NCBI GenBank assembly: GCA_009602735.1
Contig: WELA01003378.1
Coordinates: 65,712 to 129,711, forward strand
DNA length: 64,000 bases
From: Mesotaenium endlicherianum
Taxonomy: Eukaryota
Direction: 5' to 3'
Notes under the pieces: model-generated
Database searches by the model: none
What the model saw: only the letters and a program-made list of their open reading frames with translations
Told to the model about the DNA's origin: nothing
Position numbers and translations under genes: made by a program
Shown here: one piece after another, positions 3-31,100 of the stretch
Layout of the letters: each line of letters starts with the position of its first letter
How positions within the stretch are numbered: the stretch's first letter is position 1

Positions 3-2423
3 TTGGATAAGTTTGTGCAAGTTTTCCTGGATGATATTTTAATTTTCTCTAAAGATGAAGCTCAGCACACTGAACACTTAAAGAAAGTGCTGGACACTCT
101 GCGGAAAAATCACTTGTATGCTAAAATGAGCAAGTGTGATTTCTTTAAGGAAAGTATTGAATTCTTAGGCCACGTTGTCAGTAAAGAGGGCATCAGTGTG
201 GATCCTAAGAAAGTCCAGACCATAAGGGACTGGCCAGTACCACAGTCTGTCTCTGAAGTTAGATCCTTCCTCGGGTTGGCTAACTACTATAGGAGATTTA
301 TTGAGAATTATTCCACAAAGGCCAGTAAACTGACTGACCTTACTAAGAAAGACATCGGGTATGTGTGGGGGGAAGAGCAGCAGGCTGCCTTCCAGACCCT
401 TAAAGATGCCCTTTGTTCTGCCCCAGTGCTAGCCGTGTATGACCCCAGCAAACCGGTGCAGGTGGTTACTGATGCCTCTGATTTTGCCATGGGTGCTATT
501 TTGTTGCAGCCTGCTGACAAAACCACAAAGGATGGTAAGGTACGGCAGGAGTGGCATCCTGTGTTGTATGAGTCTATGAAATTTAATCCAGCGGAGATTA
601 ATTACTCAGTGCATGATAAAGAGCTGCTAGCTATCATTCATGTACTCAAACAGTGGAGAGCATACTTACATGGTAAAGCTTTTAAGGTGATTACAGATCA
701 TCTAGCTCTGACCCACTTTCAGAAGAAGTCCAAGCTGTCGAGGAGGGAGAACCGCTGGAGCCAGATGCTGGAGCAGTTCCAAGTCCAGATCGACTACAAA
801 CCAGGGAAGTTGAATCCTGCTGATGCACTCTCTAGAAGACCTGACTTGCAAGAAAGGAACTTTAGTCAGCATGCTGTAGATAAAGTCCTGTGTGCACTCA
901 CTTCACTAAAGGTGAAAAAGTCCTTCCTTGAACAACTTAGGAAAGCCTACCTTTCTGACCCAACATTTGAGCCCAGCCCCACTACTGGTATGTGTCGTGC
1001 TACCGCACTCGGGTATAAGCTCAAGGGAGGGGTCTGGGTGACTGAAACCACTTCAGGCAGGCTGAAGCTGGTCATTCCTAATAATTTGGAAATAAGGTCT
1101 CTCTTACTGAGTCAAGCTCATGACAGTCTCCTGGGTGGACATTTGGGGCAGGCCAAAACTGTTGGCAAACTGGCAAAACATTATCATTGGGAGGGGTTAC
1201 CCCGGGAGGTCTTGAAATATGTCAAGTCCTGTGACCAGTGTCAGAGAAATAAGTCTCGGCACACACCACCCGGAGGTCTCTTGCAACCGCTACCCATCCC
1301 AGCGGGACGCTGGGAAACTATATCCATGGACTGGGTGGTCTCACTACCAAGAACTGCCAACGGGCATGATTCAATACTGGTAGTCGTGGATAAACTGACA
1401 AAAATGGTCATTTTTATCCCCACAACTGTCAAAGTGACTGCACTCGAAACAGCGAGACAGTTTTACAACCATGTAGTATGCCAACATGGGCTCCCTTCTA
1501 ATATCATCTCAGACAGAGACTCAAAATTCACCTCTAAGTTCTGGAGAGCTTTAATGGGGTTAATGGGAGTCAAACAGCTGCTCAGCACAGCAAACCACCC
1601 TCAGACTGATGGGCAGACTGAAAGAACTAACCGAGTTCTGCAGGAGGTGCTGAGAGCATATATTAACCAAAAACAAGATAATTGGGATGACCTGTTGCCT
1701 CAAATTCAGTTTGCGGTCAACAGTGCGGTGCACGCGTCAACGGGCAAAACTCCTTTTGAACTCAGCCTGGGTAGAGTCCCTAAGTCTCCTCTAGATGTGC
1801 TAGGGGAATCTTTAACTCACCCTGAAGGGATTGACAACCCGGTCTCCCTCCAGTTAACTCAGGAGTTTGCTGACACCCTGTCAGAAGTCCAACGAAACTT
1901 GCACACGGCCCAAGAAAACCAACAAAAATACGCTAATCAACACCGTCGGGAACTGACATTTTCCAAGGGGGATTTAGTCAAACTGCATTCTCAGCACCTG
2001 TACCTCCCTGGTGTGGTCAAGAAAAAGCTTGGCCCTGTCTGGGTCGGTCCATATTCGGTGGTCCGTCGTGTCGGTCAGAATGCTTACAAACTGAACATGT
2101 CAGCTGAATACAAGGGGCACCCGGTCTTTAATGTCTCCTTCCTGGAACCGTACATCAAAGGTGATACACTGTTCACAGGTCGGTTCCCTGTCCAACCGGG
2201 ACCGGTCCCCGCTGTCCGGGACGGCGACCCTGAGGAATATGAGGTCGATGAGATTTTAGACGCTCGCTCGGTCCGTCGATCGTCTAAATATGTCATGAAA
2301 TACCTCATTCGATGGAAGGGTTACGATGCCTCTGGGGACACTTGGGAGTTTAAGGACCACTTGACCAATGCCAAAGGGGCGTTGACACGGTTCCACCTTC
2401 GGGCCGCTGGAGTCCCTCCATAA
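3..2423 (+). CDS. pol: Pol polyprotein, partial (RT FLDD, RNase H, integrase HHCC and catalytic core, GPY, chromodomain)
   Basis: [57 protein letters not shown]. Confidence 0.97.
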
Positions 2424-2666
2424 CTGTCATTTCAGTTGACACGGGAAGGTGACAGGCGGTCCTGTCTCCATTTAAGTTGGAGGGGAAAATATATGACAGT
2501 TAGTGAGCGAGAGCGATAAAAACACACTCATACGTTTATGTGTAGCGCATCGCAACTACGTCAACTTTTAGCAATCATCCTGTAAGGTAAACAGCAGCGA
2601 AGCCACTATACTAAATACTAACATACTTCCTGCAATCCCTATGACAAAGGTCCATATCCTACTAAC

Positions 2667-4367
2667 TTGTGCCCTGGTTACATGTGCAGGATGGCGCCCA
2701 CCACACAAAAGGAGGACAGAAAGCGCAAGGCAGAAGAAGCCAGGAGGACAATGGAGCAATACCAGAAGGAGCTGGCGGCGACGTCCCTCACCAGGAGAGA
2801 ACAAGAAAGGGTCCGCAAACAACAAGAGGCGGCAGAAGAGGCACAGAGGAAGAAGGATCAGGAAGCGGAAAACCTCAGGAAGGCTGAGGAGGAGAGACAG
2901 AAGAAACAGCAAGAAGAAGCGGCAGCGGCAGAAGAGGAGAAAAGAAAAAAGATTGAAGCGGACAGACAGAAGAGCTTGGCCACTTACAGGTATACTGTGG
3001 TGGGTGGCCAAAACTTCGATAACCTGAAGGAAGCATTGCTGGCAGCCCAGGAGATCAACAGGCTGGAACAGACAACACTGCTACAGAAGGAAGGAGCTAC
3101 AGCACTGGACAGGTACATCGAGACACACACCGGCGTGGTCCTTTACGAAGATTATGCTAAGATGGTGGGCTATACAGCAGAGCAGGCCCGGTATCTCGCA
3201 GATGATTCAGAGGACAAGCCGGTCCCCATACCGGGAATAGTGGGAGATCAGAGACTCATCCGGATGGTGAGCATGCGGCCCGATAGCTTTAAGGATACGG
3301 TATTCTACCTCACACTCCTGCCAGCTTACAATGAAGTTGAGAGAAGGAGCTGGGAGTACTTGGCCAGGGAAGCAGGACAGCAGATGTTCTCTCCCCACTG
3401 GTTCCCGTGTAAACTGAGGAAGGCTGAGCACGGACCCCAGTACTACCAGCAGCCAACAGACTGGAGGTGGATGACCGTCACAAATAAGAAGCAGGAGTGT
3501 GACCGAGCCCAACCGGATGACTTCCACTATGGCCTAGACGGCTATCTCATCCTACCACCTCACATTGCCCCTTGGGACCCCAGGCTGAATGGATGCCTGA
3601 GCAATATGAATGCAGAGACCAAGGAACATAGGAGGAGGGGAAGAGAGTACTTCTCTAAGGGAAAGCATGCCTTTGTCAAATGGGCAAAGAATGCAGGCCG
3701 GATAGATATCAGTAGGCTGAAGGCCAAGCAACCTCCAGCGCGCCCTAAGAAAGGGAGGTCGGTAGACTACTCCATGTCTACTAGGGAGCAGGACGACTTA
3801 GTGGACGAGACCCCTACTCTCTCCGAGGAGGAGGATGAGGAGGATGAGGAAGAAGAACAAGGCAGAGGAGAAGCATCAGCAGCAGGTACTCAGGATACCC
3901 AGGGACAGGCAGTGGCACTTCCTAAAGAACCACGATCAGGTGTGTGGAATGTGATCCCCGTTATGGCGACAACTGGACCCCGCGCTCGCTCCCCCAGCCC
4001 ACCTGCCCAAGCAGGGGAAGAAGCTGATCTGACGGTACTGGGCAGCAGACACAGACAGAAATCCCCAGAGGACAGGGGTGCCAGAAGAGGGACACGCGGG
4101 TGGGCCAGAGGTATGCCAGCCTCCCCCTCCGCTCAGGGGCATGTACCTCTAGCCAATGTATTTCAGCATCCTACTGGAATGCCTGTCTATGTGGGAATCA
4201 ACACCCAAATAGTTGAAGAGCAGGCCACCATCCTCCGTTCTCCCCGAGGGCCAACTTTAGAGCAAACAGGGTTCTTTAGAAGGCCAGCTGACAGACCTAG
4301 AGGGCTGTCCAGATCTAGGTCCAGATCTCCGTCCCCTGATCCTGAAGCCCCAGGAACCACCCCTTAA
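2667..4367 (+). CDS. Additional sense ORF of family A, 566 aa, unknown function (charged coiled-coil N-terminus, aromatic-rich core, acidic tract, RS/SP-rich tail)
   Basis: Long open frame between pol stop and PPT; homologous frame in copy A2 (26052-27751, minus); true start may be the ATG at 2691. Confidence 0.8.
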   Translation: MCPGYMCRMAPTTQKEDRKRKAEEARRTMEQYQKELAATSLTRREQERVRKQQEAAEEAQRKKDQEAENLRKAEEERQKKQQEEAAAAEEEKRKKIEADRQKSLATYRYTVVGGQNFDNLKEALLAAQEINRLEQTTLLQKEGATALDRYIETHTGVVLYEDYAKMVGYTAEQARYLADDSEDKPVPIPGIVGDQRLIRMVSMRPDSFKDTVFYLTLLPAYNEVERRSWEYLAREAGQQMFSPHWFPCKLRKAEHGPQYYQQPTDWRWMTVTNKKQECDRAQPDDFHYGLDGYLILPPHIAPWDPRLNGCLSNMNAETKEHRRRGREYFSKGKHAFVKWAKNAGRIDISRLKAKQPPARPKKGRSVDYSMSTREQDDLVDETPTLSEEEDEEDEEEEQGRGEASAAGTQDTQGQAVALPKEPRSGVWNVIPVMATTGPRARSPSPPAQAGEEADLTVLGSRHRQKSPEDRGARRGTRGWARGMPASPSAQGHVPLANVFQHPTGMPVYVGINTQIVEEQATILRSPRGPTLEQTGFFRRPADRPRGLSRSRSRSPSPDPEAPGTTP

Positions 4368-4480
4368 GGTGACAGGCTGAAAAGATAGTCAGTAAGGGAG
4401 GCTGGTCAGGGTCAGTTTCTTTATTTAAAGCTTTTGCAGTTTAATGTTGTCGAGGCGACAACAAGTTAAGTTGGAGGGAT

Positions 4481-5225
4481 TGTAATGAATCAGTATATTA
4501 GTAGATATAATATTCATTTAAATATAATAGTTAATTTAGTTCAGCCTGCTGAACTTTAGTTAGTAGTCAGTCTGCTGAACTTTAGTTAATAATCAGTCTG
4601 CTGGACTTTACATAATTATCAGTTTAATGACTCGGCCAAAAGCAGCAGGCTGAAGTCAACTTAAGTCAGCTTGCTGACACATTCTTTGACAGCCAGCTGA
4701 CTTCCGTACTCGGTAGCAGCGAACTGCCTTGATATGCATCTAAGTGCGATATGCTAGATGAATGGCCAGATGACATCCCTATGATGGATGGCTATTCGGG
4801 ATGATGGGAGATGGCGGTGGATTTGGTTAACCGAGGTCCTACCAACGTGGTTAACTCCCGGGTAGGCGGTGCCATCGCACTGACCGTTGAACAGTAAACT
4901 CATTCCATGTACATACGCTAGGCATTGCTCTCGAGTTCGGCATTCGGAAACGAGGCCAACTCTCTTGTACAGCTTACTGAGAGAGATCTGAATCCAAGGC
5001 GAGAAGCCATTGATACGCACTGTCTTCTAACCTTGCTTATGTATGAGTTTACTGATTTGCATTATTGATGCTAGTTTACTCTCATTTGACTGACGAGTAG
5101 TATTCCCTGCTAGTGTATTGTCCTTTGCCGTTTAACGAGTTAACGGAAATACCATAAAGAGTACTTGCTGATATAAAGATCTTTATTAATTGTTAATCGC
5201 CTATTTGGTAAGTCGATTCATTTCA
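4481..5225 (+). repeat. Family A 3' LTR (745 bp)
   Basis: TGTAATGAAT...ATTCATTTCA termini; homologous to 25233-25940, 32381-33101, 34422-35175 and 39210-39930. Confidence 0.95.
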
Positions 5226-6074
5226 ACAAAGGTGGTGCCGTCTGCTCCACGCGCTCAACATGCTCGACATGTTCGCCTCCTCCAGTTGCCGACTGCGACT
5301 CCATAATATAATATGCAAACTAGCCCAGCTCCAATACTAGATGAAAGGGGCCGAGTGCCCTAGTGGAAGCGTAGTGACTTACGAGGAGAAGAACTAGTTG
5401 CAATTATACTATAGAGTGCAGCGGCATATCACTAAGAAAGCTTAGGAAAAATACTCAACATTTAGAGTAGCAAGAAACTGCTCACAAATGATGTAGGATG
5501 AAAGGCCTTGTCATTACAAACCCGTAGAAATTTACAGAAGTGAAAACTGTTAAGAAACAAAGAAGTTATGCCTATTTATAATTTTCTGCCTAAGTGCTCC
5601 TCTCTAGGAGGAAGCTACGGATGTTCCTAAGTGTTCGTCAAATCGTCCCTTCCAGAATATTCGTGAGTAAGCCAGATCAGTCTCATTTGACGTGTCGGGC
5701 CGAATTGACGTCCACATACATGCATCGACATTACTAGAATATTCTATCTTAGACGCGCTAGGCTAAACCGAAACTTCTAGGTAAATCGACCTAGTCGGCA
5801 CTCCGCGTCAGCCGAACTTACGTGAAGGTTCGAGTTCATTCTAACGGCCAGATCGCTCGACGCTGTCGGTCAATCCGACGGTCGCGCTCACCGCAAATTA
5901 AGGACAGTTGTCATCCGACCTCAAAACTAATCAAACCTCGGAAATCCATAACTCTCTCAATACTTGACCAAATTCGATGAACTTTAATCACAAAAATGCA
6001 TTCTACAATACTATACAATCAAAACATACTTTCATGAAACTCAAAAATGCACTTTATAAACCTATGACCTCACA
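5226..6074 (-). mobile_element. Family B copy B1: 5' LTR (5342-6074), degenerate PBS and gag start (ATG at 5304), interrupted by A1
   Basis: Reverse complement matches about 16085-16940 (LTR, PBS variant [28 protein letters not shown]). Confidence 0.93.
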
Positions 6075-8067
6075 CTTATGATGAGGTCACTTATACTTGA
6101 TTGATGTTAATTTAGTTGCATGTGACTGCTACGTACACTCGCATCTATTGTATTCTGCTTTTGCTGTTAAATGAGTGAACGATAATACACCATGAAGATT
6201 ACTTGTTCATATAAATATTTTCGTGAAATGGTTAATCGTCGATTATGGTTAATCGTCGATTGGTTATTTCATTCATTTTAGAAATAAGTGAGACCTGCTT
6301 TTAGAAGTACTTATCTATACAGGCAAACTATTGCTCAAGTTAGCATAGCTGGTTCACAGCAATTCGGGATTACAAAAATTCAAACCAATAACATTGCAAG
6401 GCAAACAAAATTTATAACGTCCAAAGAAACGCCTCCGTGACCATCTTTACTCCCCAAGATTAATAAAAGATCTTCGTGATCTTGAATGCTTTTAATTAGC
6501 GCTACTCTCAGCTTAGCTCAATACATGAGCATCTTACTTTAAGTAATGTGGAGCCTCATCACGTTCACATTACATTTTAGGGTGTTGGTAGGACACAAGC
6601 ACCTTCCTGAATGGTAGTGCGACAATTGAAAATTGTGGAGAAACAGAAAGCCACATCATTCGAGTGGACACAGCCTCTTCATCCCTAGTCTTCATTTAAC
6701 CTTCGTTACCTTATCATATGGAGCCTAGCAATCTGCCACCAATCTCTCAAGTGTGCTAAGAGCTAAACCCACTGTGGCAAGTACACCCTAAATATTCCAA
6801 CAACTTCTTGCCACTTTCTACTTTCACTTTTGTACTTAGGCGCAGCCTAGAACGACTTGCAGGTGTCGTAATCAAGTCGCCCAGCAGTTCTTACTCACAC
6901 GCGTGAGCGCGTGTCAATTAAGGCACGTTGTCGGCTTGCTTCGACGTGTGACCTGCTCACGCGGTCAGCAGCCATGAAAAGCGACTAGCCGTGACAGAGC
7001 TCGCGTATGAGGAGGAGTCGGTCACAGATGTTTTCTGATGTATGTTAAAAGACGATGAGTTGATCGGAACACATGTCGCGGCAAAGAATAGCCGTTGCTA
7101 TCCTAAGGCGCTGGACAAGATAGTGCCCCCTCTTCCGTCTAACGTGTGTATCTGGAATCGTCACACTATGTCATGCAGTAACAGAACGACCGGTCGTGTT
7201 TAACAAGAATTGAGCGGAGGGCGCCTGGGAACCTCCCTGGAGTTAGGAGCAGTTGGAAGCTGATGAGACAAGACACGTAACACGATACACCATCTGTTAC
7301 AGCTGTGCATCTGTTAAGTTTGTTGTGGGTGGTTAAGGGAGAATGATGGTAATTACTGTTTGTCGCAAAATATACATTTTCAAGCGGTAATAGCTAGCTG
7401 TCAGACTTTGAATCCGCGGATATTGAGCCGTATCAGAAGACCTTTAATGAAGTCGACAGTTGGCGAGAAAGAATCTAGAGCTAAGCAATACTGGACCACA
7501 ATTTGATTCGGTGCATTATGAACCGTACATGAGTATACGTACTCATCACTAGACATTGATTCTCGATGTGCAGAGTTGTGACGGGTGTTTCAGACTGATG
7601 CCAGGAGAGTATTGAGGACAGATTGTCCGCCAGCAGAGCACCGTACCTAATGAAAGCTCAGCCATTGGACGTTCTATGTGAACAGCGATTGGTGGATCTC
7701 ATGTAGCCGACTATTGCAGAACCAAACGATGCCTCCTTCGACAGACACGACCGGAACTGTTCCTTATATGGTGGTTGCAGGTGTTCACCATGAACCAAAT
7801 TGCACACTCCATTCGCCGTGTTTCTCTCACACTCCGTCGGGTAGATCGAGGACTAATAAGAAGTTACACCCTAGGTCATCTCAGTAAGTCCTGCTTGTGC
7901 TTCCGAATCGATCCTGATCACTTCCGTCCTGAAGTGTCTCATACTTTTGCAAGCCAACTACCTCATAAGAAGAAGGCGAGAACTTCAGTGACCTGCATTT
8001 CCCCTCCCATTTTGAAGTTTCTGTCAGGAAGGATTATAACCACAACAGGAGTTTCATAACAGTTAAT

Positions 8068-10281
8068 ATGGTGCATCACAGTCCTCCCGCGCTGAGACTT
8101 CCTTGCGAGTGTGTGTCAAATGAAGATGTGATCAATCACAAAGTCAAGGTACATAGCTGCCCTATACTAGCCGCTCATGGACACCAAATTTCAAACTGAT
8201 CATCTCAAAAGACCCGTTTGACAGGTCCTGAAAGAGCAGGAAGTCAGGAAAGCCATTCGTGCAACTGCGTACCCGCACTTATCAATGTTATCTCTTGATC
8301 ATTTGCAGGCGGTGCCTGATGGTAACCTGGGAACCCTCGAGTACAGGCTCAACTTTTTAAACGCTGAAGGTCGTACATTATCACCCTGGCATTCAATTCC
8401 CCTCTATGCTGGTGGCGATCTCCTCAACTTTGTCTGCGAAATACCAAGAAATACTAGTGCCAAGTTTGAGGTATGAACTCCCAAACCTTCCAATCTCGCT
8501 GGCCATTCTCAGATTTTTGAGATGACGTCGACTGCCAACGTCTATTTAGTACTACTTACCTCGGTTCCTACAAGTTCTGATTATGCTGCTGTGCATAATG
8601 ACAGGTTTCTACCTCAGAGCTTGGAAATCCTATCAAGCAAGACGCTAAGAAGGGAAAACCTCGTCATTATGCCGTGAACATTCCATGGAACTATGGCATG
8701 CTTCCCCAGGTAAACTCACACACTTCACAGAGTATGGCAATGGCACTACAGATTTCTGAACACTGCTTCTTGACCACAATGGTGAAACTTCAGCTTTTGA
8801 GGAACTTATAGCCCCATGAAGAATATGAAGTTCTCCGTAAGGCTGTGGCATGTTTATACTGAAAAGTGTGGATGTGGAAGTAGTTATGGAAGTGGGGTAA
8901 TAAGACGACTTACGCTGCGTTGACGACAGGTGTTTTAGTATTTGACTTAGTGTTTTCTTGTCACTGAACTTAGATTCGGGTGGAAGCAGAACAATGTGGA
9001 AAAAGTTGTGGGTTCAGGCTTGTTTCCAATGACGTGGTCAATACAAACGCTAGACACCAAAGTACCTGTCAGGATGGCATGTGTGCATGATGGAATGCTT
9101 ATGTCTGCTACAGCCAAGTTTCTTAAATTTTGTCCTTTTTCTTTTCAGACCTGGGAGGATCCTACTCATGCTAATGAGGATTGCGAAGGCTGCTTGGGCG
9201 ACAATGATCCTGTTGATATTGTTGAGATTGGTGATAACACTGGTGCTACTGGAGAAGTATATGCAGTCAAGCCTGTGGCAGGTATGCTATTTTCCATCCT
9301 GGTAACCTTGCAAATGTATGGTACCAGCCAGGAGAATATTGCAGATGATGGATCTTGGAATGTGCTTGATAGTAAGAACCTCTGGGGGTGATGCAACTGA
9401 TACTTCAGCTGGAACTTTAGTGTGTAGCAAGTGCTTACGAGACTTCAATTGTTACTCATCTTCATCTATGCCACCTACACTCGAATACAAATTGAATATG
9501 ATAATTCTCCTGGGTTTGCAGCCTTTGCAATGATCGACGAAGGAGAACTGGACTGGAAGGTGGTTGCCATCTCTTCGAATGATCCTCGCTGCCATTTGGT
9601 CAGTAATGAAGTTGACGTGGAGAAGCATTTCCCAGGAACACTGTCAGCCATCAGGTAAGATCTTCAGTTTGCAGAGACTTACAAACATGTTGGGGAAAAG
9701 AGGCTGACTCAAATTGTCTTAGTAATCTGAGCCTTGTGTGCTTCTTTTTGTGCTCCAAGATCGGTTGATTTCTCTACCCTTATCACCAAATAGTGTTGAC
9801 ATGGTTTCTTTTGCAACTTGTTCTGTTTTGCAGGGAGTGGTTCAGAATTTACAAAACTTTTGATGGAAAGCCAGAAAACAAGTTTGCGCTGCAGGAGAAA
9901 GCCATGGGAAGAGAATATACCTTACGTATGATAGCTGAGACACATACTTTCTGGAAGGCTATGGTACAGAGAGCCCGCACCAATGCCCCTGGAGTGAAAC
10001 TTATGGTTGGTGATGTGCCAATAACTGCACCCTGCCTGGTTTCTATCGACAGCGACACAGACGAGAGCAGCTTCTTAAACTCCCCTACAGGATCTGGAAC
10101 CACTGGCGATTTCACTTCTGCCTTGGCGGAAACCGTGAAGGGTGTTCTAGAGTCTGTTGATGCTTCTGCTCCTCACGGAATGAAGAGACATCCCTCTGAA
10201 GGCAATATGAAGCACAAAGACATTGACATCGAATGTGATCACGGCAGCAAGCGCTTGGAACTATCTGTAGCAGCTGCCTAA
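8068..10281 (+). CDS. Soluble inorganic pyrophosphatase, family I, multi-exon, with C-terminal extension
   Basis: Exons SPWHSIPL..EIPR..AKFEV, NPIKQD, WNYGMLPQ|TWEDP, GDNDPVDIVEIG, MIDEGELDWK, WFRIYK..DGKPEN; GT-AG introns; start ATG inferred. Confidence 0.92.
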
Positions 10282-10971
10282 CTTGATGTCTTCAATATGT
10301 AGATTTTTTCAGGCCAATAGGCAAGTGTACAAGTGACTGAAGTAGAAACCATGTTAGCTAAAAATCAGTTCCCTTGATGTACATAATAGGGCAAGGTAAT
10401 TCACAAATAGATGGCAACCATTCTTTCACAATAAGTGTTTTGGTATTTGACCAAGACATTTGTGACCCATTTTCCTGGCTATTGCCAGAGAGCAGTATAA
10501 TAGAACACATTACTCTCTTCCATATATAACTCGTCTAAGTCACTCTTCTTTTTTATTGTGTGCCCTAGATTGGATTCTTGCGAAATACCGATACACACAA
10601 ACTGAGAGGGTTTGAAATAAAGTGAGAGTGCATTTTCTTAATGCCTTGTGCACTCGCAGTGTCGCATATTGAGAAATGGCAGCCAAATATGTCCTCGACT
10701 GATCTTTCTTCAAAAATCAACTACCATCTAAGCAGCACTTCAAAGGTGACGAGTTAAAAGACACGATGAAAAGAGTACATAAGACAATCAGAAACATCAG
10801 TTTGAAGACGAAGATTGACAATGCTCATTTTTACTGTTCACATAAAGTAAAAGAGAACAAAACCAAGGTAACACATACTGATGGACCTTGCTAAACAGGA
10901 TACTACAGTCTGTCAGCTGTGTAATAACTTCTTTCCGACAGGATTTATGCACCAAAGAATTCATGTGATAC

Positions 10972-16084: not shown

Positions 16085-16828
16085 TGTAAGGTCATAGGTT
16101 TATGAAGTGTATTTTTGAGTATCATGAAAGTATGTTTTGATTGTATAGTAAAGTAGAGTGCATTTTTGTGGTCATTTTGATATAAAGTTCATCGAATTTG
16201 GTCAAGTATTGAGAGAGTTATGGATTTCCGAAGTTTAATTAGTTTTGAGGTCGGTTGACGATTGTCCTTAATTCGCGGTGAGCGCGACCGTCGGATTGAC
16301 CGACAGCGTCGAGCGATCTGGCCCGTTAGAATGAACTCGAACCTTCACGTAAGTTCGGCTGACGCGGAGTGCCGACTAGGTCGATTTACCTAGAAGTTTC
16401 GGTTTAGCCTAGCGCGTCTAAGATAGAATATTCTAGTAATGTCGATGCATGTATGTGGACGTCAATTCGGCCCGACACGTCAGATTAGACTGATCTGGCT
16501 TACTCACGAATATTCTGGAAGGGACGATTTGACGAACACTTAGGAAAATCCGTAGCTTCCTCCTAGGGAGGAGCACTTAGGCAGAAAATTATAAATAGGC
16601 ATAACTTCTTTGTTTCTTATCAGTTTTCACTTCTGTAAATTTCTACGGGTTTGTAATGACAAGGCCTTTCATCCTACATCATTTGTGAGCAGTTTCCTGC
16701 TACTCAAAATGTTGAGTAATTTTCCTAAGCTTTGTTAGTGATATGCCGCTGCACTCTCTAGTATGATGGCAACTAGTTCCTTTCCTCGTGAGTCACTACG
16801 CTTCCACTAGGGCACTCTGCCCCTTTCA
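16085..16828 (+). repeat. B2 5' LTR (744 bp)
   Basis: TGTAAGG...CCTTTCA; near-identical to 21484-22226. Confidence 0.97.
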
Positions 16829-16830
16829 TC

Positions 16831-16842
16831 TGGTATCGGAGC
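16831..16842 (+). promoter_or_regulatory. Primer binding site, initiator tRNA-Met type (TGGTATCGGAGC)
   Basis: 2 nt after the LTR end; one difference from canonical TGGTATCAGAGC, compatible with a G-U pair. Confidence 0.88.
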
Positions 16843-16865
16843 AGGGCTAGTTTGCATATTATATT

Positions 16866-17897
16866 ATGGAGTCGCAGCCGGCAGCTGGAGGAGGCGAACA
16901 TGTTGAGCATGTTGAGCGCGCGGGGCAGCAGGCAGCACCAACAATGACCAGAGAGCAACAAGAGATGCAGGCGATGCTAAGACAAATGGCAAATGCAATT
17001 GGAGGAGAAGTCTACACCCAGTTTCAACAAAATATGCGCGCGGAGGTGGAGAGAATGGTGCGAGTTGTTATGGGGAACGCCGCTTCGACGAGTTCGGCAC
17101 CTGCACCTGTTGTACCACCGATTCATGTTAACCCAGTGGTGCAACCAGTTATTCCACCCGCATCAGGAGTGCGTGCACCTAAGCCTGAAGTTTATACTGG
17201 AGAGCGTGGATCGCCGCCTGTTCATCAATGGATTTTTGGAGTGAAGAAGTTTATGGAGTATTCTGCGCTCACGCCCGACAGGCAAGTCGCCTTTGTCATA
17301 ACTTTGCTGCAGAAGAGTGCTGGAGCTTGGTATGAACGAGAAGAGCAGCTGTCTGGAGTTCCTGCTACTGTTGATCAGCTATTTGAAGGCTTGAAGAGGC
17401 AATTTCAACCTATTGCACCCGAGGCTACCGCTCGAGATCTATTGGTGCGCCTTCGTCAACGAGGAAGCGTTCAAGAGTATGTATCGCGCTTCAACGAGCT
17501 GGTGCTTCAATGTCCATCCATGCACGAGTCGGAGATGATGGACAAGTTCAAGAGGGGACTCAAGCCAACTGTGGCCAAGGAAGTGGCGCTCAAGGACCCT
17601 ACCAGTCTTGGAGAAATGATGGCATTGGCAACAAGGGTCGACGCTGTGGAGTATAGTCAGAGGCAGTGGGGCAGCCACAACTTTGGAGGATATCGACACT
17701 TTGGATCTCAAGCGCCAAGCACGAGTGTTCAAGGTCCAGTACCCATGGAGTTGGGACTTGTGCAGTACCAGCGCAGGCAGCAGAATTTCAAGCCGAGAGG
17801 ACCGTGCTATAGTTGCGGCAAGCTTGGACATCTGGCTCGAGACTGTCATGTGAAGGCGAAGCAACCTCAACAGCAGGAAAAAGGAGGACGCCAGTAA
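16866..17897 (+). CDS. gag: Gag with CCHC zinc knuckle
   Basis: [44 protein letters not shown]. Confidence 0.95.
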
Positions 17898-20800
17898 GTC
17901 GTTCTGGGGTGTCTACTGGCGTGAAGACGAGAACTCACAAGGAGGTTATCCCCAGGAGCCTGCCGAGAAGCAAAGGACGAGACGTTGACAAGCCTATCAT
18001 CGTGGAAGGAGTGGTCGACGGCAACAAGGCGAAGTGTATGGTCGACAGTGGCGCAAGTGCAAACTTTGTGCACAAGAAGCTGGTGAAAGAGTGGCGAATC
18101 CCTGTGCAGAAGCATTATGAGCCTAAGGAGGCAATTTTGGCAAATGGGCAGAGACTCAAGTGTGGTGCACCTACGGAAGCTATTCACGTGGAAGTAGCGG
18201 GGCACCGGAGTAAGGAAGTTATGGAGCAGGCAGAGTTGGGTCACCATGAGGTGATATTGGGCCGACCATGGCTGAGGAAAGCCAACCCTCAAGTGCACTG
18301 GAGCACAGGACAAGTGAAAGTCCAAGGGCGTGATGGTCGAATGGAGACAGCGAAACAGGTGGAGGTAGATACGACCACAAGTAACTGTCTTCTGTCGAGC
18401 CTGCAAGTTAAGAAGCTATGCAGGGCGAATCAGGTGAAGGAGATGTACCTTGTTTCGGTGGCCCTGGCCAGGTCATCAGATGGAGCAAGCGTGAATCCTA
18501 ACAGCCTGGGCGAATGTACATCGCCGGAGGAGCAAGTAGTGGTGTCTGATCCCCTTGCTCAGAAGGAGCAGAGCCCAACTGCTCAAGAGAAGAAGCCTGC
18601 TGAGATGCCTGCCCAAATTAAGGCGCTGTTGGAGGAGTTCAAGTGCGTGTTTCCTGAGGAACTACCTACAGGATTACCTCCACAGAGAGCTATGGAGCAC
18701 AAGATTGAGTTGGAACCAGGGAGCAAGCCACCAGTGAGACCCGCCTATCGACAATCGTTTGCGGAGTTGGATGAGTTAAAGAAGCAACTGACGGAGTTAT
18801 TGGAGAAGGGATTCATCCGACCCAGCGAGTCTCCATTTGCAGCGCCAGTCTTATTTGTGAAGAAGAAGGATGGGACTATGAGGATGTGTGTCGACTACCG
18901 GGCACTCAACAAGGTCACCATCAAGAACAGGTACCCACTTCCACGAGTGGACGAGTTGATTGACAGGCTTGTCGGGGCGAAGTATTTCTCGAAGATCGAT
19001 TTGAGGAGTGGCTATCACCAGGTACGGATTGCGGAAGGAGACGTTCAGAAGACTGCTTTCAGAACTCGCTATGGTTTGTTCGAGTTCACAGTCATGCCTT
19101 TTGGATTGACTAATGCACCTGCTACATTCATGGGACTCATGAATAGTATCTTCAGACCCTACTTGGACCAGTTTGTGGTGGTATTTTTGGACGACATCCT
19201 GATCTATTCGAAGACCTTGGAAGAGCATGTGGAGCATCTGAGGAAGGTGTTGGAGGTCTTGAGAGATCAAAAGCTGTATGGGAAGATGAGCAAGTGCGAC
19301 TTCTGTCTCAAGGAGGTCGAGTTTCTTGGACACATAGTGGGAGCTGAAGGAGTCAAGGTGGAGCAGAAGAAGGTGCAAGCAGTCAGAGATTGGCCGGTAC
19401 CTGCTGATATTCATCAACTCAGGAGTTTCCTCGGCATGGCGAATTATTATCGACGTTTCATTGAAGGATTTGCCAAGGTGTGTGCACCGCTCACGGACAT
19501 GTTGAAGAAGCAGGAGAAGTGGCTATGGGGTGACAAGGAGCAGCAAGCCTTCGAGAAGATTAAGGAGCTGTTAACACAGGCACCTGTGTTGGCAATTGCC
19601 AGTCCAGAGCTTCCTTTCACCATCATCACGGACGCATCAAACTTTGCAGTGGGAGCCATTCTTCTCCAGGACCAGGGCAAAGGATTGCAGCCTGTGGCAT
19701 ATGAGAGCAGGAAGTTGAGTCCTGCTGAGCAGAACTATGCAGCACACGAGCGGGAGATGTTGGCTATTATCCAGGCTTTGAGGATTTGGCGATGTTATGT
19801 GGACGGCCGGAAGGTGTTCATCAAGACCGACCACAAGAGCTTGGAGAAGTTTATGACGCAGCCAACGTTGACACCAAGACAGGCAAGGTGGATGGAGTTT
19901 CTGCAACAGTTCGACCACAAGATTGAGTACTTACCTGGGAAGATCAACCCTGCAGACGCTTTATCCAGGAGGTGTGACCTTGCAGCTGTCTCAGTCATCA
20001 AGGAGAATATGGACTTCAAGGAGAAGCTTCAGAGAGGTTATGAGGAGGACCCAGAGTTTGCTGATGGTGGAGCAGCTGAGTCCAACTCGAGTATGCAGAA
20101 GAAGGACGGCATATGGTATTATGGTGATTCCAAGAGAGTGGTGGTACCTGACATCAAGGAGCTACGAGACTTACTACTTACGGAGCATCATGACTGCTTA
20201 TATGCTGGACACTTTGGAAGCGAGAAGACGGCAAGCGTGCTGAAGCGGGAATATTACTGGAGAAATATGGACAAGGACATCGAGGAGTGGATCAGGAGTT
20301 GCGATGCGTGCCAGAGAAACAAGACACCAAATCAAAAGAAGGGAGGTACATTGCGACCCCTGCCTATTCCAGAGTATCCTTGGGAGCAGATTGCTATGGA
20401 CTTCATCACATCGTTACCAGTCAGTGGTCAAGGGCACGATGCAGTATGGGTAGTGTCTGACAGACTCAGCAAGATGGCTCACTTCATTCCCATGAAGGAG
20501 ACTTCTACGGCAGCAGATGTGGCACGGCTATTCTTTGATCATATTTTTAGGCTACATGGGTTGCCGAAGGTGATTGTTTCAGATCGAGATCCAAGGTTTA
20601 CTAGCAACTTTTGGCGGTCATTGTTTACTTTGATGGGGACCAAGCTGAGTATGAGCACTTCCTATCACCCTCAGACAGATGGGCAGAGTGAGAGGCTCAA
20701 CAGAACTCTGCAAGAGGTGCTCAGGAGTTTCACTATGGAAGACCCTTCAGAGTGGGACAAGAAGCTACCAGGGTTGGAGTTTGCCTACAACAACAGCATG

Positions 20801-21496
20801 CAGGGATCGACCAAGCAGTCACCATTCGCTATGGTTTATGGGAGAGAAGTATATCATCCAGGGAACATCTTGTTGGAGAAGGCCAAGGAGACTCAGGTTC
20901 CTACTACACAAGCTTTTATGGAGCAGATGGCCAAGACTTGGGATATGGCGAAGACGTGTATTCGGAAGGCACAACAAGAGCAGGTCAAGCATGCTAACAA
21001 GCACAGGAGGGAAGTGACATTCCAAGTGGGCGACAAAGTACTCTTGTCCACAGAGAACCTACCTTTCACAGGCAAGAGGAAACTGCGGGCACGGTTTACA
21101 GGTCCCTTTGAAGTGCTCAAGCAGGTGAATCTAGTGACCTACAAGTTGGAACTTCCTCCAGGATGGCGTATCCATGATGTGTTCCATGTCAGTTGTCTAC
21201 GGCCATACGTTGACCCGAATGAAGGACATCCAGGACGACTACCTACACCGCCACCACCGGTCGAGATCGATGATGTATTGGAGTATGAAGTGGAGGCGAT
21301 TGTCGGCGATCGACGAGTCAAGCGAGGTCAACGAGTTGTCCAAGAGTATCTGGTCAAGTGGAAAGGCTACCATGCGGACGACAACACTTGGGAGCCAGAG
21401 GCCAACTTGACTCATTGTAAGAGTAAGTTGAGACGTTATCTGCAGAATGCGTCGAGGACGTCGCATCTTGAGAAGGGGGATGATGTAAGGTCATAG
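17813..21496 (+). CDS. pol: Pol (protease, RT, RNase H, integrase, chromodomain) in the -1 frame relative to gag; runs 13 nt into the 3' LTR
   Basis: [50 protein letters not shown]; the listed start is not a true ATG. Confidence 0.97.
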
Positions 21497-22226
21497 GTTT
21501 ATGAAGTGCATTTTTGAGTATCATGAAAGTATGTTTTGATTGTATAGTAGTGTAGAGTGCATTTTTGTGGTCATTTTGATATAAAGTTCATCGAATTTGG
21601 TCAAGTATTGAGAGAGTTATGGATTTCCGAAGTTTAATTAGTTTTGAGGTCGGTTGACGACTGTCCTTAATTCGCGGTGAGCGCGACCGTCGGATTGACC
21701 GACAGCGTCGAGCGATCTGGCCCGTTAGAATGAACTCGAACCTTCACGTAAGTTCGGCTGACGCGGAGTGCCGACTAGGTCGATTTACCTAGAAGTTTCG
21801 GTTTAGCCTAGCGCGTCTAAGATAGAATATTCTAGTAATGTCGATGCATGTATGTGGACGTCAATTCGGCCCGACACGTCAGATTAGACTAATCTGGCTT
21901 ACTCACGAATATTCTGGAGGGGACGATTTGACGAACACTTGGGAAAATCCGTAGCTTCCTCCTAGGGGGAGCACTTAGGCAGAAAATTATAAATAGGCAT
22001 AACTTCTTTGTTTCTTATCAGTTTTCACTTCTGTAAATTTCTACGGGTTTGTAATGACAAGGCCTTTCATCCTACATCATTTGTGAGCAGTTTCTTGCTA
22101 CTCAAAATGTTGAGTAATTTTCCTAAGTTTTGTTAGTGATATGCCGCTGCACTCTCTAGTATGATGGCAACTAGTTCCTTTCCTCGTGAGTCACTACGCT
22201 TCCACTAGGGCACTCTGCCCCTTTCA
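21484..22226 (+). repeat. B2 3' LTR (743 bp)
   Basis: Follows the PPT and is followed by TSD GCACG. Confidence 0.97.
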
Positions 22227-25232: not shown

Positions 25233-26051
25233 TGAAATGAATCGACTTACCAAATAGGCGATTAACAATTAATAAAGATCTTTATATCAGCAAGTAATCT
25301 TTATGGATTTTCCGTTAACTGATTAAAACACACTAGCAGTGGACAACACTCGTAAGTCAAATGCGAGTAAACCAGCATCAATCATGCAATCAGTAAACTC
25401 ATACATAAGCAAGGCTAGGAGACAGTGCGTATCAATGGCTTCTCGCCTTGGATTCAGATCTCTCTGAGTAAGCTGTACAAGAGAGTTGGCCTCGTTTCCA
25501 AATGCCGGACTCGAGAGCAATGCCTAGCATATGTACATGGAATGAGTTTACTGTTCAACGGCCAGTGCGATGGCACCGCTTACCCGGGAGTTAACCACGT
25601 TGGTAGAACCTCGGTTAACCAAATCCACCGCCATCTCCCATCATCCCGAATCGCCATCCATCATAGGGATGTCATCTGGCCATTCATCTAGCCTATCACA
25701 CTTAGATGCATATCGAGGCAGTTCGCTGCTACCGAGTACGGAAGTCAGCTGGCTGTCAAAGAATGTGTCGGCAAGCTGACTTAAGTTGACTTCAGCCTGC
25801 TGCTTCCGGCTGAGTGATTAAACTGCTATTAAGTATAAAGTCCAGCAGAATGACTATTTAATTAGAGTTCAGCATGCTAAACTTGATTAACTATTATATT
25901 TAAATGAATATTATATCTACCAATATATTGATTCATTACAATCCCTCCAACTTAACTTGTTGTCGCCTCAACGACATTAAACTGTAGAAATCTTAAATAA
26001 GGGAACTGAGCCTGACCAGCCTCCGCCACTGACTGCCCTTTAGCCTGTCAC

Positions 26052-27751
26052 CTAGGGGGTTGTTCCTGGGGCTCCAGAATCAGGAGACTGAGATTTGGAC
26101 CTAGATCTGGATAGCCCTCTAGGTCTGTCAGCTGGCCTTCTAATGAACCCCGTTTGTTCTAAAGGTTGACCTCGAGGAGAACGAAGGATGGTAGCCTGCT
26201 CTTCACCCACTTGGGTGTTGATCCCCACATAGACAGGCATTCCAGTAGGATGCTGAAATACATTGGCAAGAGGTACATGTCCCTGAGCAAAGGGGGAGGC
26301 GGGCATACCTCTGGCCACCCCGCGTGGCCCTCTTCTGAAACCCCTGCCATCTGGGGATTTCTGCCAGTGTCTGCTGCCAAGTACAGTCAAATCAGCTTCT
26401 TCTCCTGCTTGGGCAGGTGGGCTGGGGGAGCGAGTGCGGGGTCCAGTTGCCTCCATGACCGGGATCACGTTCCATATACCTGATCTTGGTTCCTTAGGAA
26501 GTGCCCCTGCCTGCTCCCGTGTCTCCTGAGTACCAGCTCCTGATGCTTCTCCTCTGCCTTGTTCTTCTTCCTCATCCCCCTCATCCTCCTCCTCTGAGAG
26601 AGTAGGAGTCTCGTCAACTAAGTCGTTTCGCTCTCTGGTAGACATGGAGTAGTCTACTGATCTCCCGTTCTTAGGGCGCGCTGGAGGTTGCTTGGCCTTC
26701 AGCCTGCTAATATCTATCCGGCCTGCATTCTTTGCCCATTTGACGAAGGCATGCTTTCCCTTAGAGAAGTAATCTCTTCCCCTCCTCCTGTGCTCTTTGG
26801 TCTCTGCATTCATATTGCTCAGGCAGCCATTCAGCCTGGGATCCCAAGGGGCAATGTGAGGAGGTAGGATGAGGCAGCCGTCTAGGCCATAGTGGAAGTC
26901 GTCGGGTTGGGCTCGGTCACAATCCTGCTTTTTGTTTGTGACGGTCATTCACCTCCAGCCTGTGGGCTGCTGGTAGTACTGGGGTCCATGCTCAGCTTTT
27001 CTCAGTTTACATGGGAACCAGTGGGGAGAAAACATCTGCTGTCCTGCTTCCCTGGCCAAGTACTCCCAGCTCCTTCTCTCAACTTCATTGTAAGCTGGCA
27101 ATAGTGTGAGGTAGAATACCGTATCCTTAAAGCTATCGGGCCGCAAGCTTACCATCCTGATGAGTCTCTGATCTCCCACTATTCCCGGTATTGGGACTGG
27201 CTTGTACTCAGAATCATCGGCATGATACCGGGCCTGCTCTGCTGTATAGCCCACCATCTTGGCATAATCCTCGTAGAGGACCACACCAGTGTGTCTCTCA
27301 ATGTACCTATCCAGTGCTGCAGTTCCTTCCCTCTATAGCAGTGCTGTCTGTTCCAGCTTGTTGATCTCCTGGGCTGCCAGCAATGCTTCCTTCAGGTTAT
27401 CAAAGTTTTGGCCACCCACCACAGTATACCTGTAAGTGGCCAAGCTCTTACGCCTGTCCGCTTCAGCCTTTTACCTTCTCTCCTCCTCTGCCGCTGCCGC
27501 TTCTCTCGTTGTTTCTTCTGTCTCTCCTCCTCAGCTTTCCTGAGGTTTTCCGCTTCCTGATCCTTCTTCCTCTGTGCTTCTTCTGCCGCCTCTTGTTGTT
27601 TGCGGACCCTCTCTTGTTCGATCCTGGTGAGGGACGTCGCCGTCAGATCCTTCTGGTATTGCTCCATTGTCCTCTTAGCTTCTTCTGCCTTGCGCTTCCA
27701 ATCCTCCTTTTGGGTGGTGGGAGCCATCCTGTACATGTAACCAGGGCACAA
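26052..27751 (-). pseudogene. Decayed copy of the family A extra ORF
   Basis: Three ORF fragments align to 2667-4367; in-frame stops and one frameshift. Confidence 0.9.
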
Positions 27752-28131
27752 GTTAGTAGGATATTGACCTTTGTCCTAGAAGTTGCAGGAAGGGAGTAAG
27801 TTCGTTTTAGTATGGTGTATTCGTTCCTGTTTACCTTACAGGGTGCTTGCTAGGAGTTGACGTAGTTGCGGTGCGCTAGACATAAACATATGAATGTGGT
27901 TATAGGTGTGTTAAGTGATGCATGGCTGTGCGAGGCTCTTTGTCCATTCGCTAAAGGTGCTTTATGTGGGCCAGGCTGTCCCCTCTGTCACTATGCTGAC
28001 ACTTAGGGTTCACATAACTGTCCCTAACTGTCCCTTTCTCGCTCTCGCACACTAACTGTCATATACTTTCCCCTCCAACTTAAATGGAGACAGGACCTCC
28101 TGTCACCTGCCCGTGTCAACTGAAATGACTG

Positions 28132-31100
28132 TTAGGGAGGTGCTCCAGCCGCCCGAAGGTGGAATCGTTTCAACGCCCCTTTGGCATTAGTCAAATGGTC
28201 TTTAAATTCCCAAGTGTCCCCTGAGGCATCGTAACCCTTCCATCGAATGAGGTACTTCATGACATATTTAGACGATCGACAGACCGAGCGCGCGTCTAAA
28301 ATCTCCTCAACCTCATATTCCTCATGGTCGCCGTCCCGGACAGCGGGGACCGGTCCCGGTTGGACAGGTAACCGACCCGTGAACAGTGTATCACCTTTGA
28401 TGTAGGGTTCCAGGAAGGAGACATTAGAGACCGGATGACCCTTGTATTCGGTTGACACGTTCAGTTTGTAAGCGTTCTGACCGACACGACGCACCACCGA
28501 ATATGGACCGACCCAGACAGGGCCAAGCTTTTTCTTGACCACACCAGGGAGGTACAGGTGCTGAGAATGTAGTTTGACCAAATCGCCTTTAGAAAAGGTC
28601 GGTTCGCGACGGTGCTGATTAGCGTACTTTTGTTGGTTTTCTTGGGCTCTGTGTAGGTTTTGCTGGACTTCTGACAGGGTGTCAGCAAACTCCTGAGTTA
28701 ACTGGAGAGAGACCGGATTGTCAATCCCTTTAGGGTGAGTTAAAGACTCCCCTAGGACATCTAAAGGAGACTTAGGGACTCTACCCAGGCTGAGTTCAAA
28801 AGAAGTCTTGCCCATTGACGCGTGCACCGCACTGTTGACCGCAAATTGGATTTGGGGTAACAAGTCATCCCAATTATCTTGTTATTGGTTAATATAGGCT
28901 CTCAGTACCTCTTGCAGAACTCGGTTAGTTCTCTCAGTCTGCCCATCAGTCCGAGGGTGGTTTGCTGTGCTGAGCAGCTGTGTGACTCTCATTAACCCCA
29001 TTAAAGCCCTCCAGAACTTAGAGATAAATTTTGAGTCTCTGTCTGAGATTGTATTAGAGGGTAGCCCATGTTGGCATACTACATGGTTGTAGAACTGTCG
29101 CTGTTTCGAGTGCAGTTACTTTGACGGTTGTGGGGATGAAAATGGCCATTTTTGTCAGTTTATTCACGACTACCAATATCGAATCATGCCCATTGGCAGT
29201 TCGTGGCAGTGTGACCACCCAGTCCATTGATATCGTTTCCCAGCGACCAGCTGGGATGGGCAGTGAATGTAAGAGGCTCCCCGGTGGTGTGTGCCTAGAC
29301 TTGTTCTTTTGACATTGGTCACAAGACTTAACGTATTTCAAGACCTCTCGAGGTAAATCCTCCCAATGATAATGTTTTGCCAGTTTGCCAACAGTTTTGG
29401 CCTGCCCCAAATGCCAACCCAGTAAACTGTCATGTGCTTGACTCAATAAAAGGGACCTTATTTCCAAGTTATGAGGAATGACCAGCTTCAGCCCGCCTGA
29501 AGCGGTTTCAGACACCCAGACCCCTCCCTGAAGCTTATACCCGAGTGCAGTAGCACGACACATACCAGTAGTGGGGCTGGGCTCTAATGTTGGGTCAGAA
29601 AGGTAGGCTTTCCTAAGTTGTTCAAGGAAGGACTTTTTTACTTTTAGTGAAGTGAGTGCACACAGAACTTTATCTACAGCATGCTGACTAAAGTTCCTTT
29701 CTGTCAAGTCAGGTCTTCTAGAGAGTGCATCAGCAGGATTCAACTTCCCTGGTTTGTAGTCGATCTGGACTTGGAACTGCTCCAGCATCTGGCTTCAGCG
29801 GTTCTCCCTCCTCGACAGCTTGGACTTCTTCTGAAAGTGGGTCAGAGCTAGATGATCTGTAATCACCTTAAAAGCTTTACCATGTAAGCATGCTCTCCAC
29901 TGTTTGAGAACATGAATGATAGCTAGCAGCTCTTTATCATGCACTGGCTAATTAATCTTCGCTGGATTAAATTTCATAGACTTGTACAACACAGGGTGCC
30001 AATGTTGCCGTACCTTACCATCCTTAGTGGTTTTGTCAGCAGGCTGCAACAAAATAGCATCCAGTCGGAGGCATCAGTCACCACCTGCACCGGTTTGCTG
30101 GGGTCATACACGGCTAGCACGGGGGCAGAACAAGGGGCATCTTTAAGGGTCTAGAAGGCAGCCTGCTGCTCTCCCCTCACACATACCCTATGTCTTTCTT
30201 AGTAAGATCAGTGAGTTTACTGGCCTTTGTAGAATAATTCTCAATAAATCTACTATAGTAATTAGCCAACCCGAGGAAGGATCTAACTTCAGAGACAGAC
30301 TGTGGTACTGGCCAGTCCCTTATGGTCTGGACTTTCTTAGGATCCACGCTGATACCTTCTTTGTTGACAATGTGGCCTAAGAATTCAATACTTTCTTTAA
30401 AGAAATCACACTTGCTCATTTTAGCATATAAGTGATTTTTTCTCAGAGTGGCCATCACTGTGTTCAAGTGTCCAGCGTGCTGAGCTTCATCTATAGAGAA
30501 AATTAATATATCATCCAAGAAAACTTGCACAAACTTATCCAAGTAAGGTTTGAAAATGTCATTCATAGCACCCATGAAGGTCGCAGGGGCATTAATCAGT
30601 CCAAATGGCATCACGTTGAACTCATAGTGTCCATAACGTGTGCGGAAGGCAGTCTTGTGCTCATCCCCCTCAGCAATTCTGATTTGATGATAACCACTCT
30701 TGAGATCTATCTTACTGAACACCTTAGCACCAGACAGGGTATCGAGCAAGTTCTCGATTCTGGGTAAAACATACTTGTTCCTTACTGTAATTCTGTTCCG
30801 AGCTCTGTAATCCACACACATCCGCATATTGCCATCCTTTTTCTTAACGAACAGGATGGGTGCGCCATAAAGGTAATTTATTGTGGGAAATGTAACCATT
30901 TTCCTCAAGCTCTGCGATCTGTGTTTTCAACTCCTCGCTCTTGACATAAGACAAGCCATAAGTGCGTTGCCAGGGTGGCTGACTCCCAGGTAATAAATCA
31001 ATTCTATGATCTACTTCACTCTTAGGGGGTAGTTCTGGAGGCATATGAAATACATCCGTATACTTAGCAACAACTTTTGCAGCAGTAGGGTGCTCCGGAG

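Follow-up and report, generated by a model that had tools for sequence, protein, structure and literature searches.

An accessory gene under purifying selection, bracketed by polypurine tracts, in a chromovirus of Mesotaenium endlicherianum

The window analyzed here is a stretch of 64,000 nucleotides from the genome of Mesotaenium endlicherianum, near whose 5' end a long open frame follows, in sense, the chromodomain pol of a Ty3/gypsy element, here called A1, and precedes its 3' LTR. Extra ORFs located after pol are described as a known class, mostly of unknown function (PMC7264820, PMC11963269, PMC6317226). The questions raised by this locus are whether the frame is a gene, how it came to lie behind pol, and what its protein may do for the element. 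Feature coordinates are collected in Table 1.

Table 1. Features of elements A1 and A2 and of the accessory protein (window positions, or residue numbers where stated).
Feature	Coordinates	Strand	Remarks
pol, 3' part, A1	3-2423	+	RT, RNase H, integrase, SH3, chromodomain; continues beyond the 5' end of the window
12-mer of pol 3' UTR	2446-2457	+	recurs at 4366-4377
First polypurine tract (PPT1)	2472-2485	+	13 nt identical to 3' PPT; candidate relic and/or central PPT
Candidate relic LTR start and internal promoter/5' UTR	2486-2586	+	A2 about 135 nt longer here
Predicted 5' UTR intron	2587-2689	+	103 nt; donor AG/GTAAAC, branch CTAAC 2662, acceptor TGCAG/G
Accessory ORF	2691-4367	+	558 aa from ATG 2691
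3' PPT (PPT2)	4466-4480	+	2/44 differences between A1 and A2 over 4437-4480
3' LTR, A1	4481-5225	+	TG...CA, 745 bp
Element A2	25233-33101	-	LTRs 32381-33101 and 25233-25940; both PPTs present
Decayed accessory ORF copy, A2	26052-27727	-	1 one-base gap, 3 stops
Protein regions			charged helix, residues 1-95; constrained core, ~96-345; basic patch, ~340-358; acidic tract, ~366-392
Protein C-terminal part			low-complexity R/G/S/P tail; conserved hydrophobic stretch, residues ~481-520

The pol of A1 matched RVT_1, RT_RNaseH, Integrase_H2C2, SH3_Tf2-1 and Chromo above the Pfam cut-offs, with rve (E 4.5e-6) below its own. The order RT-RNase H-integrase with a C-terminal chromodomain is that of Ty3/gypsy chromoviruses, as the first-pass annotation had proposed, and the window also holds TG...CA LTRs, PPTs and a 5-bp target duplication at a solo LTR. 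The nearest database relative of this pol is 46% identical, and the closest named relatives, from Closterium, are 41% identical; in a quick tree with 35 rows (33 of 120 matches, A1 and a second chromovirus family of the window, B), A1 pol stood on a long branch by itself. The 5' end of A1 itself lies outside the window; loose ends of public runs X23, X6, X5 and X9 carry, behind the LTR, what we take to be a tRNA-Met-type PBS. By eye, the A1 chromodomain has Y, W and Y at what are presumably the aromatic-cage positions. A host PP2C exon has its best matches at 78% and most of its named land-plant matches at 54-74%, as befits a streptophyte host. The algal host, aromatic cage and tRNA priming are compatible with the Chlamyvir clade and not diagnostic of it. 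Membership in the Tcn1 clade by self-priming was considered and rejected on account of the tRNA-Met-type PBS in the A-family loose ends; in that clade, 83% of elements are described as self-priming without a tRNA PBS and 5% as using tRNA-Met (PMC6317226).

Element A2 is a second copy of the A family, without PBS and 5' gag and with a decayed pol (5 stops and 3 gaps in the 806 codons compared). The A2 5' LTR region (32381-33142) has its left flank in common with a solo A-family LTR at 39210-39930, which is flanked by a 5-bp duplication; because of this common flank and the missing PBS, A2 looks like the product of an LTR-LTR rearrangement. At 31715-31760 (-), the A2 gag ends in CTT TAA and the protease frame continues at +1, which we take to resemble a stop-dependent +1 frameshift site; since A2 is decayed, this may be an artefact. 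Other elements were seen in the window. The family B chromovirus at 16085-22226 (+) is apparently intact, with LTRs 1.2% apart, a 5-bp target duplication, overlapping gag and pol, a PPT directly after the chromodomain, no extra ORF, and a PBS at 16831 that is presumably of the tRNA-Met type; a fragment of this family (5231-6075) adjoins the A1 3' LTR. An LTR-like element at about 35180-38900 (-), with a PBS at 38047 and no interior ORF of 150 aa, includes 76 nt with about 80% likeness to the LTR of the A family. A repeat at 33353-34237 (-) and 40156-40950 (+) contains orphan ORFs of 294 aa and of 156 aa plus a continuation past a stop, for which no Pfam match above cut-off was found in the two parts scanned. 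The ORF at 33353-34237 was tried as a relative of the accessory ORF and rejected (E 0.26).

In the ORF listing of the window, the accessory frame is open from 2622 to 4367 (+), 581 codons from stop to stop. The first-pass annotation had described an ORF of 566 aa, intact in A1 and recognizable in A2. The ORF is real and its state in both copies is as claimed, the A2 homolog being about 90% identical in protein. The length does not stand, because it counts from a bacterial-type start, the TTG at position 2667; the alternative ATG starts at 2682 and 2691 would give 561 and 558 aa. Extension to the TTG was rejected on two grounds: A2 has a stop just upstream, and the 16 codons that precede the ATG show no synonymous change. 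With 558 codons in sense after pol and ahead of the 3' LTR, the ORF has the position, orientation and size (at least 250 codons) of the class termed eORF-3'F or aORF-3S.

The two copies were compared codon by codon, with gapped and stop codons left out; all values that follow come from this one pair. Over 557 aligned codons, differences at first, second and third positions numbered 26, 28 and 92, in keeping with the many third-position differences claimed earlier, and the end codons quoted for A1 and A2 were present as described. The ORF has a dS of 0.263 and a dN of 0.045, giving a dN/dS of 0.17 (bootstrap CI 0.12-0.24), which is not near 1; the ratio is 0.18 for residues 1-95, 0.09 for 96-345 and 0.26 for 346-558. 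In the off-frame controls (antisense, and two shifted frames) the ratio was 1.2-1.9, and a chance ORF or shadow frame was rejected on this comparison. At this dS about 18 stops would be expected under neutral change; 3 are seen, all in A2. We are confident that the ORF is a selected protein-coding gene under purifying selection, as the first-pass annotation had supposed. Judged by its stops (8 over 160 target sites), A2 has decayed by about 0.05, enough to account for the whole dN of 0.045; during the active life of the lineages, constraint was therefore probably stronger than 0.17. For pol, dS is 0.244 and dN/dS is 0.13, and the two ratios do not differ (Fisher p 0.29). Since ORF and pol agree in dS, in dN/dS and in how far they have decayed in A2, they were inherited, and evolved, as one unit. 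Observed/expected CpG is 0.40 in the ORF, 0.45 in pol and 0.63 in one host exon, an element-like depletion such as a long stay in a methylated element would leave.

The protein matched no described family among the resources searched (proteins, Pfam, PHROGs, PDB, ESM Atlas), and the earlier statement that its family is not a recognized one holds. When residues 90-350 were compared with 5.8 billion proteins (lengths 306-977 only), none of 3,782 candidates was homologous, and no homolog was found among 1.84 billion protein representatives. There was no match in PDB at E 10, only sub-threshold and unrelated matches in Pfam (E 1 and E 10) and PHROGs, and a best ESM Atlas score of 0.84, within the range of shuffled proteins. 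The domains known from eORFs (PMD, Transposase_28, Athila ORF-1, DUF390/601/1204/1633, SMC) gave no profile match in Pfam scans at E 1 and E 10. Searches for related loci were negative for 588 metagenome, 601 prokaryote-genome and 599 viral candidates; a scan with the integrase found two short distant loci at 33-41%, which were set aside. The missing ORF homologs partly reflect an under-sampled lineage, because pol is also without a close relative. A recently transduced host gene was rejected as the source of the ORF, given the lack of a homolog in protein databases, the high copy number and the element-like CpG depletion.

In composition the protein is largely as first described, with a W/F/H/P-rich core and basic and acidic tracts. 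In residues 8-95, E/K/R/Q/A make up 82%, i+4 charge pairs number 23 and large hydrophobic residues 6, which we take to be the pattern of a charged single helix. There are no amino-acid changes between A1 and A2 in residues 201-240, the acidic region 361-400 has a net charge of -15, and NLS-like motifs occur at 71-87 and 353-356. The RSRSRSPSP tail is present in A1 and is not exactly kept in A2, which has RSRSKSQSP; the last 38 codons, with 7 amino-acid changes, are among the more variable ones. A single-sequence AlphaFold2 model was unusable (pLDDT 34.7). Because there is neither a homolog nor a usable fold, any molecular activity ascribed to the protein is a guess from composition.

The surroundings of the ORF suggest how it may have been acquired. 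It is bracketed by the duplicated 12-mer and PPT, and none of 20,000 (overlapping) background windows shared a 12-mer with the pol 3' UTR. PPT1 begins 49 nt past the pol stop and is identical in A1 and A2 at all 14 positions; over the stretch 2424-2485, 3 of 62 sites differ between the copies, synonymous sites being 22% divergent. Exactly at 2485, loose ends begin in eight X24 reads and in one X6 contig; past two bases they show TG(T)GACAG-like text, the order found at a PPT-LTR junction. The same TG(T)GACAG-like text is present in A1 and A2, a few bases further on and with TA where the terminal TG would be. From this layout we infer that the ORF cassette was added behind an original PPT-LTR junction, leaving a relic LTR, on the basis of 30 letters from these eight reads and one contig; the text after PPT1 could instead be an older form of the same spacer and not an LTR. 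One X6 contig (2427-3902) runs from PPT1 into the ORF.

Central PPTs are known from Ty1, EVADE and HIV (PMC7197481), in which, as in A1, the 3' PPT is not the only polypurine tract and another lies upstream of it. PPT1 of A1 differs from these in lying in the pol 3' UTR and in resembling a former 3' PPT; it may now act as a candidate central PPT, its priming being putative. RNA folding of the two PPT regions gave z values of -1.9 and -2.2 in A1 and of -1.2 and 0.07 in A2, and because the A2 values are weak no conserved RNA structure is assigned there. The hexamer TGACAG occurs three times in the 270-nt spacer 2421-2690 (0.17 expected; the hexamer was picked post hoc) and is repeated in the loose ends at 2485. 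It recalls what we take to be a KNOX/BELL site; as a lead only, the cluster could tie expression of the ORF to the zygote stage.

The predicted intron of the 5' UTR ends one base before ATG 2691. Its branch-acceptor stretch differs between A1 and A2 at 2 of 40 sites (p 0.003 versus synonymous divergence), as against 10 of 53 in mid-intron; because both differences would be non-synonymous if read in frame, this constraint acts on nucleotides. The donor region alone (2 of 19 differences) is not significant. The same donor hexamer interrupts a host pyrophosphatase gene at 8710. A second donor consensus, G/GTAAGT, is found at 5207, near the end of the A1 3' LTR, and is kept in all four full-length LTR copies of the window; this donor could splice to the acceptor before the ATG of the ORF.

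The ORF is silent in the sampled polyA libraries. No read was placed in the ORF region 2656-4425 in any of three polyA runs carrying the label of the host species (6%, 12% and 12% of each read; 205, 315 and 194 reads placed), nor did lowering the required likeness to 80% in run X23 recover any; the spliced or subgenomic transcript that the first-pass annotation had proposed to look for was thus not seen in these runs. In X23 the neighboring host gene 8022-10400 was covered, the first five bins having a depth of about 15-30; foreign reads inflate one later bin, and of 1,973 reads 699 were at least 99% alike. At 9530-9564, about 600 X23 reads have GC-rich loose ends and come from a different pyrophosphatase gene, of a paralog or a second organism. 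Reads from pol were mostly 90-99% alike, and those of the LTR lay on both strands. Over 1240-2478, reads from diverged pol copies in runs X22-X24 appear antisense; such reads are possibly a source of double-stranded RNA against the A family.

The abundance of the family was judged from public DNA runs. In run X1, the single-copy flank 6045-10400 assembled as one contig with 0 differences at a depth of 74.6; summed contig depth was 3.6-6.4e5 for the ORF, 0.8-1.0e6 for pol and up to 2.1e6 for the LTR (43,780 contigs), sums that are inflated by overlapping contigs and give no copy number. Because of these overlaps depth is read only as high copy, hundreds or more, from which the A family would have the ORF on a large share of its copies. 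By the same summed depth, which is not a copy count, the ORF stands at about 0.4-0.7 of pol in X1 and near pol in X5, X6 and X9. On this depth the ORF does not appear to be absent from most young copies, which the first-pass annotation had named as evidence against its reading. It is also carried by older subfamilies, as two X1 pieces that cover it have 81% and 85% identity. Runs X5, X6 and X9, which bear other organism labels, contain ORF pieces 99.6-100% identical to A1, and X5 and X9 have no depth on the single-copy flank 6216-8322. The simplest and likely reading is that these runs contain trace host DNA of which only high-copy repeats assemble; horizontal transfer is possible. If it is trace host DNA, A1 is near the commonest young form.

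REM1 of Chlamydomonas reportedly has a third ORF. Gypsy-7a_cRei of the same genus is described with two ORFs in 15.4 kb (PMC9940879), and a figure legend shows an unnamed additional ORF in Tcn1-like elements (PMC2864245). The REXdb summary lists chromovirus eORFs for Tekay only (3'F, 18%); for Chlamyvir, Tcn1, Reina, Galadriel and CRM it gives none (PMC6317226). This holds at the level of a summary table, so that single algal cases may exist. The accessible part of the charophyte genome preprint (10.1101/835561) does not discuss extra ORFs, and no description of the A family or of a PPT-bracketed accessory cassette was found in literature outside subscription journals and Repbase.

The A1 ORF belongs to the known class of extra ORFs, with the PPT-bracketed cassette structure as an added feature. 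The eORF-3'F / aORF-3S of SIRE, Athila, Tekay and Retand are likewise described as lineage-restricted sense ORFs of more than 250 codons that follow pol and precede the 3' LTR, have no known domain and are present in many copies (PMC6317226, PMC7264820); the A1 ORF differs in having no transmembrane segment, no PMD, Transposase_28, Athila ORF-1 or DUF match, and flanking PPTs. Grande gene23 of maize and TRP28 of Retand are 3' accessory genes conserved like pol (PMC7264820, PMC11963269), and gene23 is described as nuclear with its own internal promoter (PMC7264820), as may hold for the A1 ORF. These genes, however, are antisense and belong to non-chromovirus Tat/Retand elements of flowering plants, and the A1 ORF has no TRP28 match. 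The 5' aORF of sunflower Tekay group 2, reported in most copies, is, like the A1 ORF, a chromovirus ORF with an NLS or NLS-like motifs, helices, long disordered parts and no Pfam match (PMC11728184); it lies upstream of gag in a seed-plant clade, and the two are set side by side by description only. VANC of the VANDAL transposons (PMC13547354) offers a functional analogy only, as an element-encoded accessory factor that counters silencing; it comes from a DNA transposon, is related to MAIN/plant-mobile-domain proteins, and no sequence likeness to the A1 ORF was found.

Our favored reading, held tentatively, is that the protein is a nuclear chromatin or nucleic-acid helper made from its own spliced subgenomic RNA, which aids expression of the element or its escape from silencing; the basis of the nuclear assignment is NLS-like motifs and composition only, and K/R motifs arise easily in charged sequence. 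The first-pass annotation had likewise proposed a nuclear factor, with anti-silencing or RNA processing as examples of what it might do. The cassette would have been inserted behind the original PPT-LTR junction, with duplication of the 3' UTR and PPT; the old LTR start would have lost its terminal TG and persisted as an internal promoter, and PPT1 may have been retained as a second plus-strand primer or cis signal. The message would lose an intron ending one base before ATG 2691, with its donor at 2587 or at the end of the 5' LTR. In the protein, the charged N-terminal helix would serve as a spacer or dimer arm, the folded core and basic patch would bind DNA or RNA, and the acidic and R/G/S/P-rich tails would contact chromatin or RNA-processing proteins, at a stage or condition outside the sampled libraries. 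A more far-reaching version, in which the former LTR became a stage-specific internal promoter and an anti-silencing protein of new fold drove expansion of the A family, is unlikely. A post-transcriptional role on the element RNA, such as export of unspliced RNA, packaging or suppression of small-RNA silencing in the manner of Rev or viral suppressors, is somewhat doubtful, and is the alternative we take most seriously. The R/G-rich and RS-rich tail, the basic patch and the aromatic core would suit it; with a donor in the LTR and an acceptor ahead of the ORF, spliced and unspliced RNA would have to be kept in balance; and a role resembling dsRNA binding has been proposed for the Tekay 5' aORFs (PMC11728184). 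However, the RS tail, a hint at RNA processing, differs in A2 and lies in the least constrained part of the protein (dN/dS 0.26), no RNA-binding Pfam family was matched even at E 10, and the protein has a single GW dipeptide.

The bracketing features also bear on whether the cassette comes from a different mobile element, a non-autonomous LTR element that nested or recombined here, and is a gene of that element, selected for its needs. An upstream LTR-like start and a PPT of its own would fit such an origin, as would the other sequence found before 4441 in one X6 contig, before 4066 in X9 and before 3330 in X5. Against this, ORF and pol share dS, dN/dS and A2 decay, a single X6 contig (2427-3902) spans PPT1 to the ORF, and the ORF has no Pfam match to gag, transposase or other mobile-element families; we regard this origin as quite unlikely. 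Selfish cargo directed at the host, whether a toxin-antidote system, a meiotic-drive factor or a host-beneficial gene, would agree with an orphan that is strongly constrained and silent in the sampled libraries, and transposon-borne drive genes are described in fungi. No catalytic motif or toxin family was found in the Pfam, PDB and PHROGs searches, however, and at high copy number a drive or addiction gene should bring little gain per copy, which makes cargo very unlikely. An env-like or movement protein for cell-to-cell spread would account for position and orientation, which are those of env-like ORFs, and for the predicted splice acceptor, since a splice acceptor is described for Bagy2 (PMC7264820). 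But the N-terminus is highly charged and no transmembrane segment or hydrophobic stretch long enough for a membrane or signal peptide was detected (maximum Kyte-Doolittle value 0.73 over 19 residues); the first-pass annotation had judged the ORF not env-like, and we too consider such a role highly improbable.

The function and origin of most extra ORFs of plant LTR retrotransposons are called unknown in print (PMC7264820, PMC11963269, PMC6317226). The A family presents a cleanly constrained orphan protein in a type of chromovirus without extra ORFs in the REXdb summary, together with visible traces of gene addition in the duplicated UTR and PPT and the LTR-like relic. Related copies seem to diverge at the PPT1 junction, which would provide a natural comparison. 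If it is true that the protein counters silencing or handles the element RNA, the A family would give an example, from outside seed plants, of a retrotransposon that has a regulatory gene of its own.
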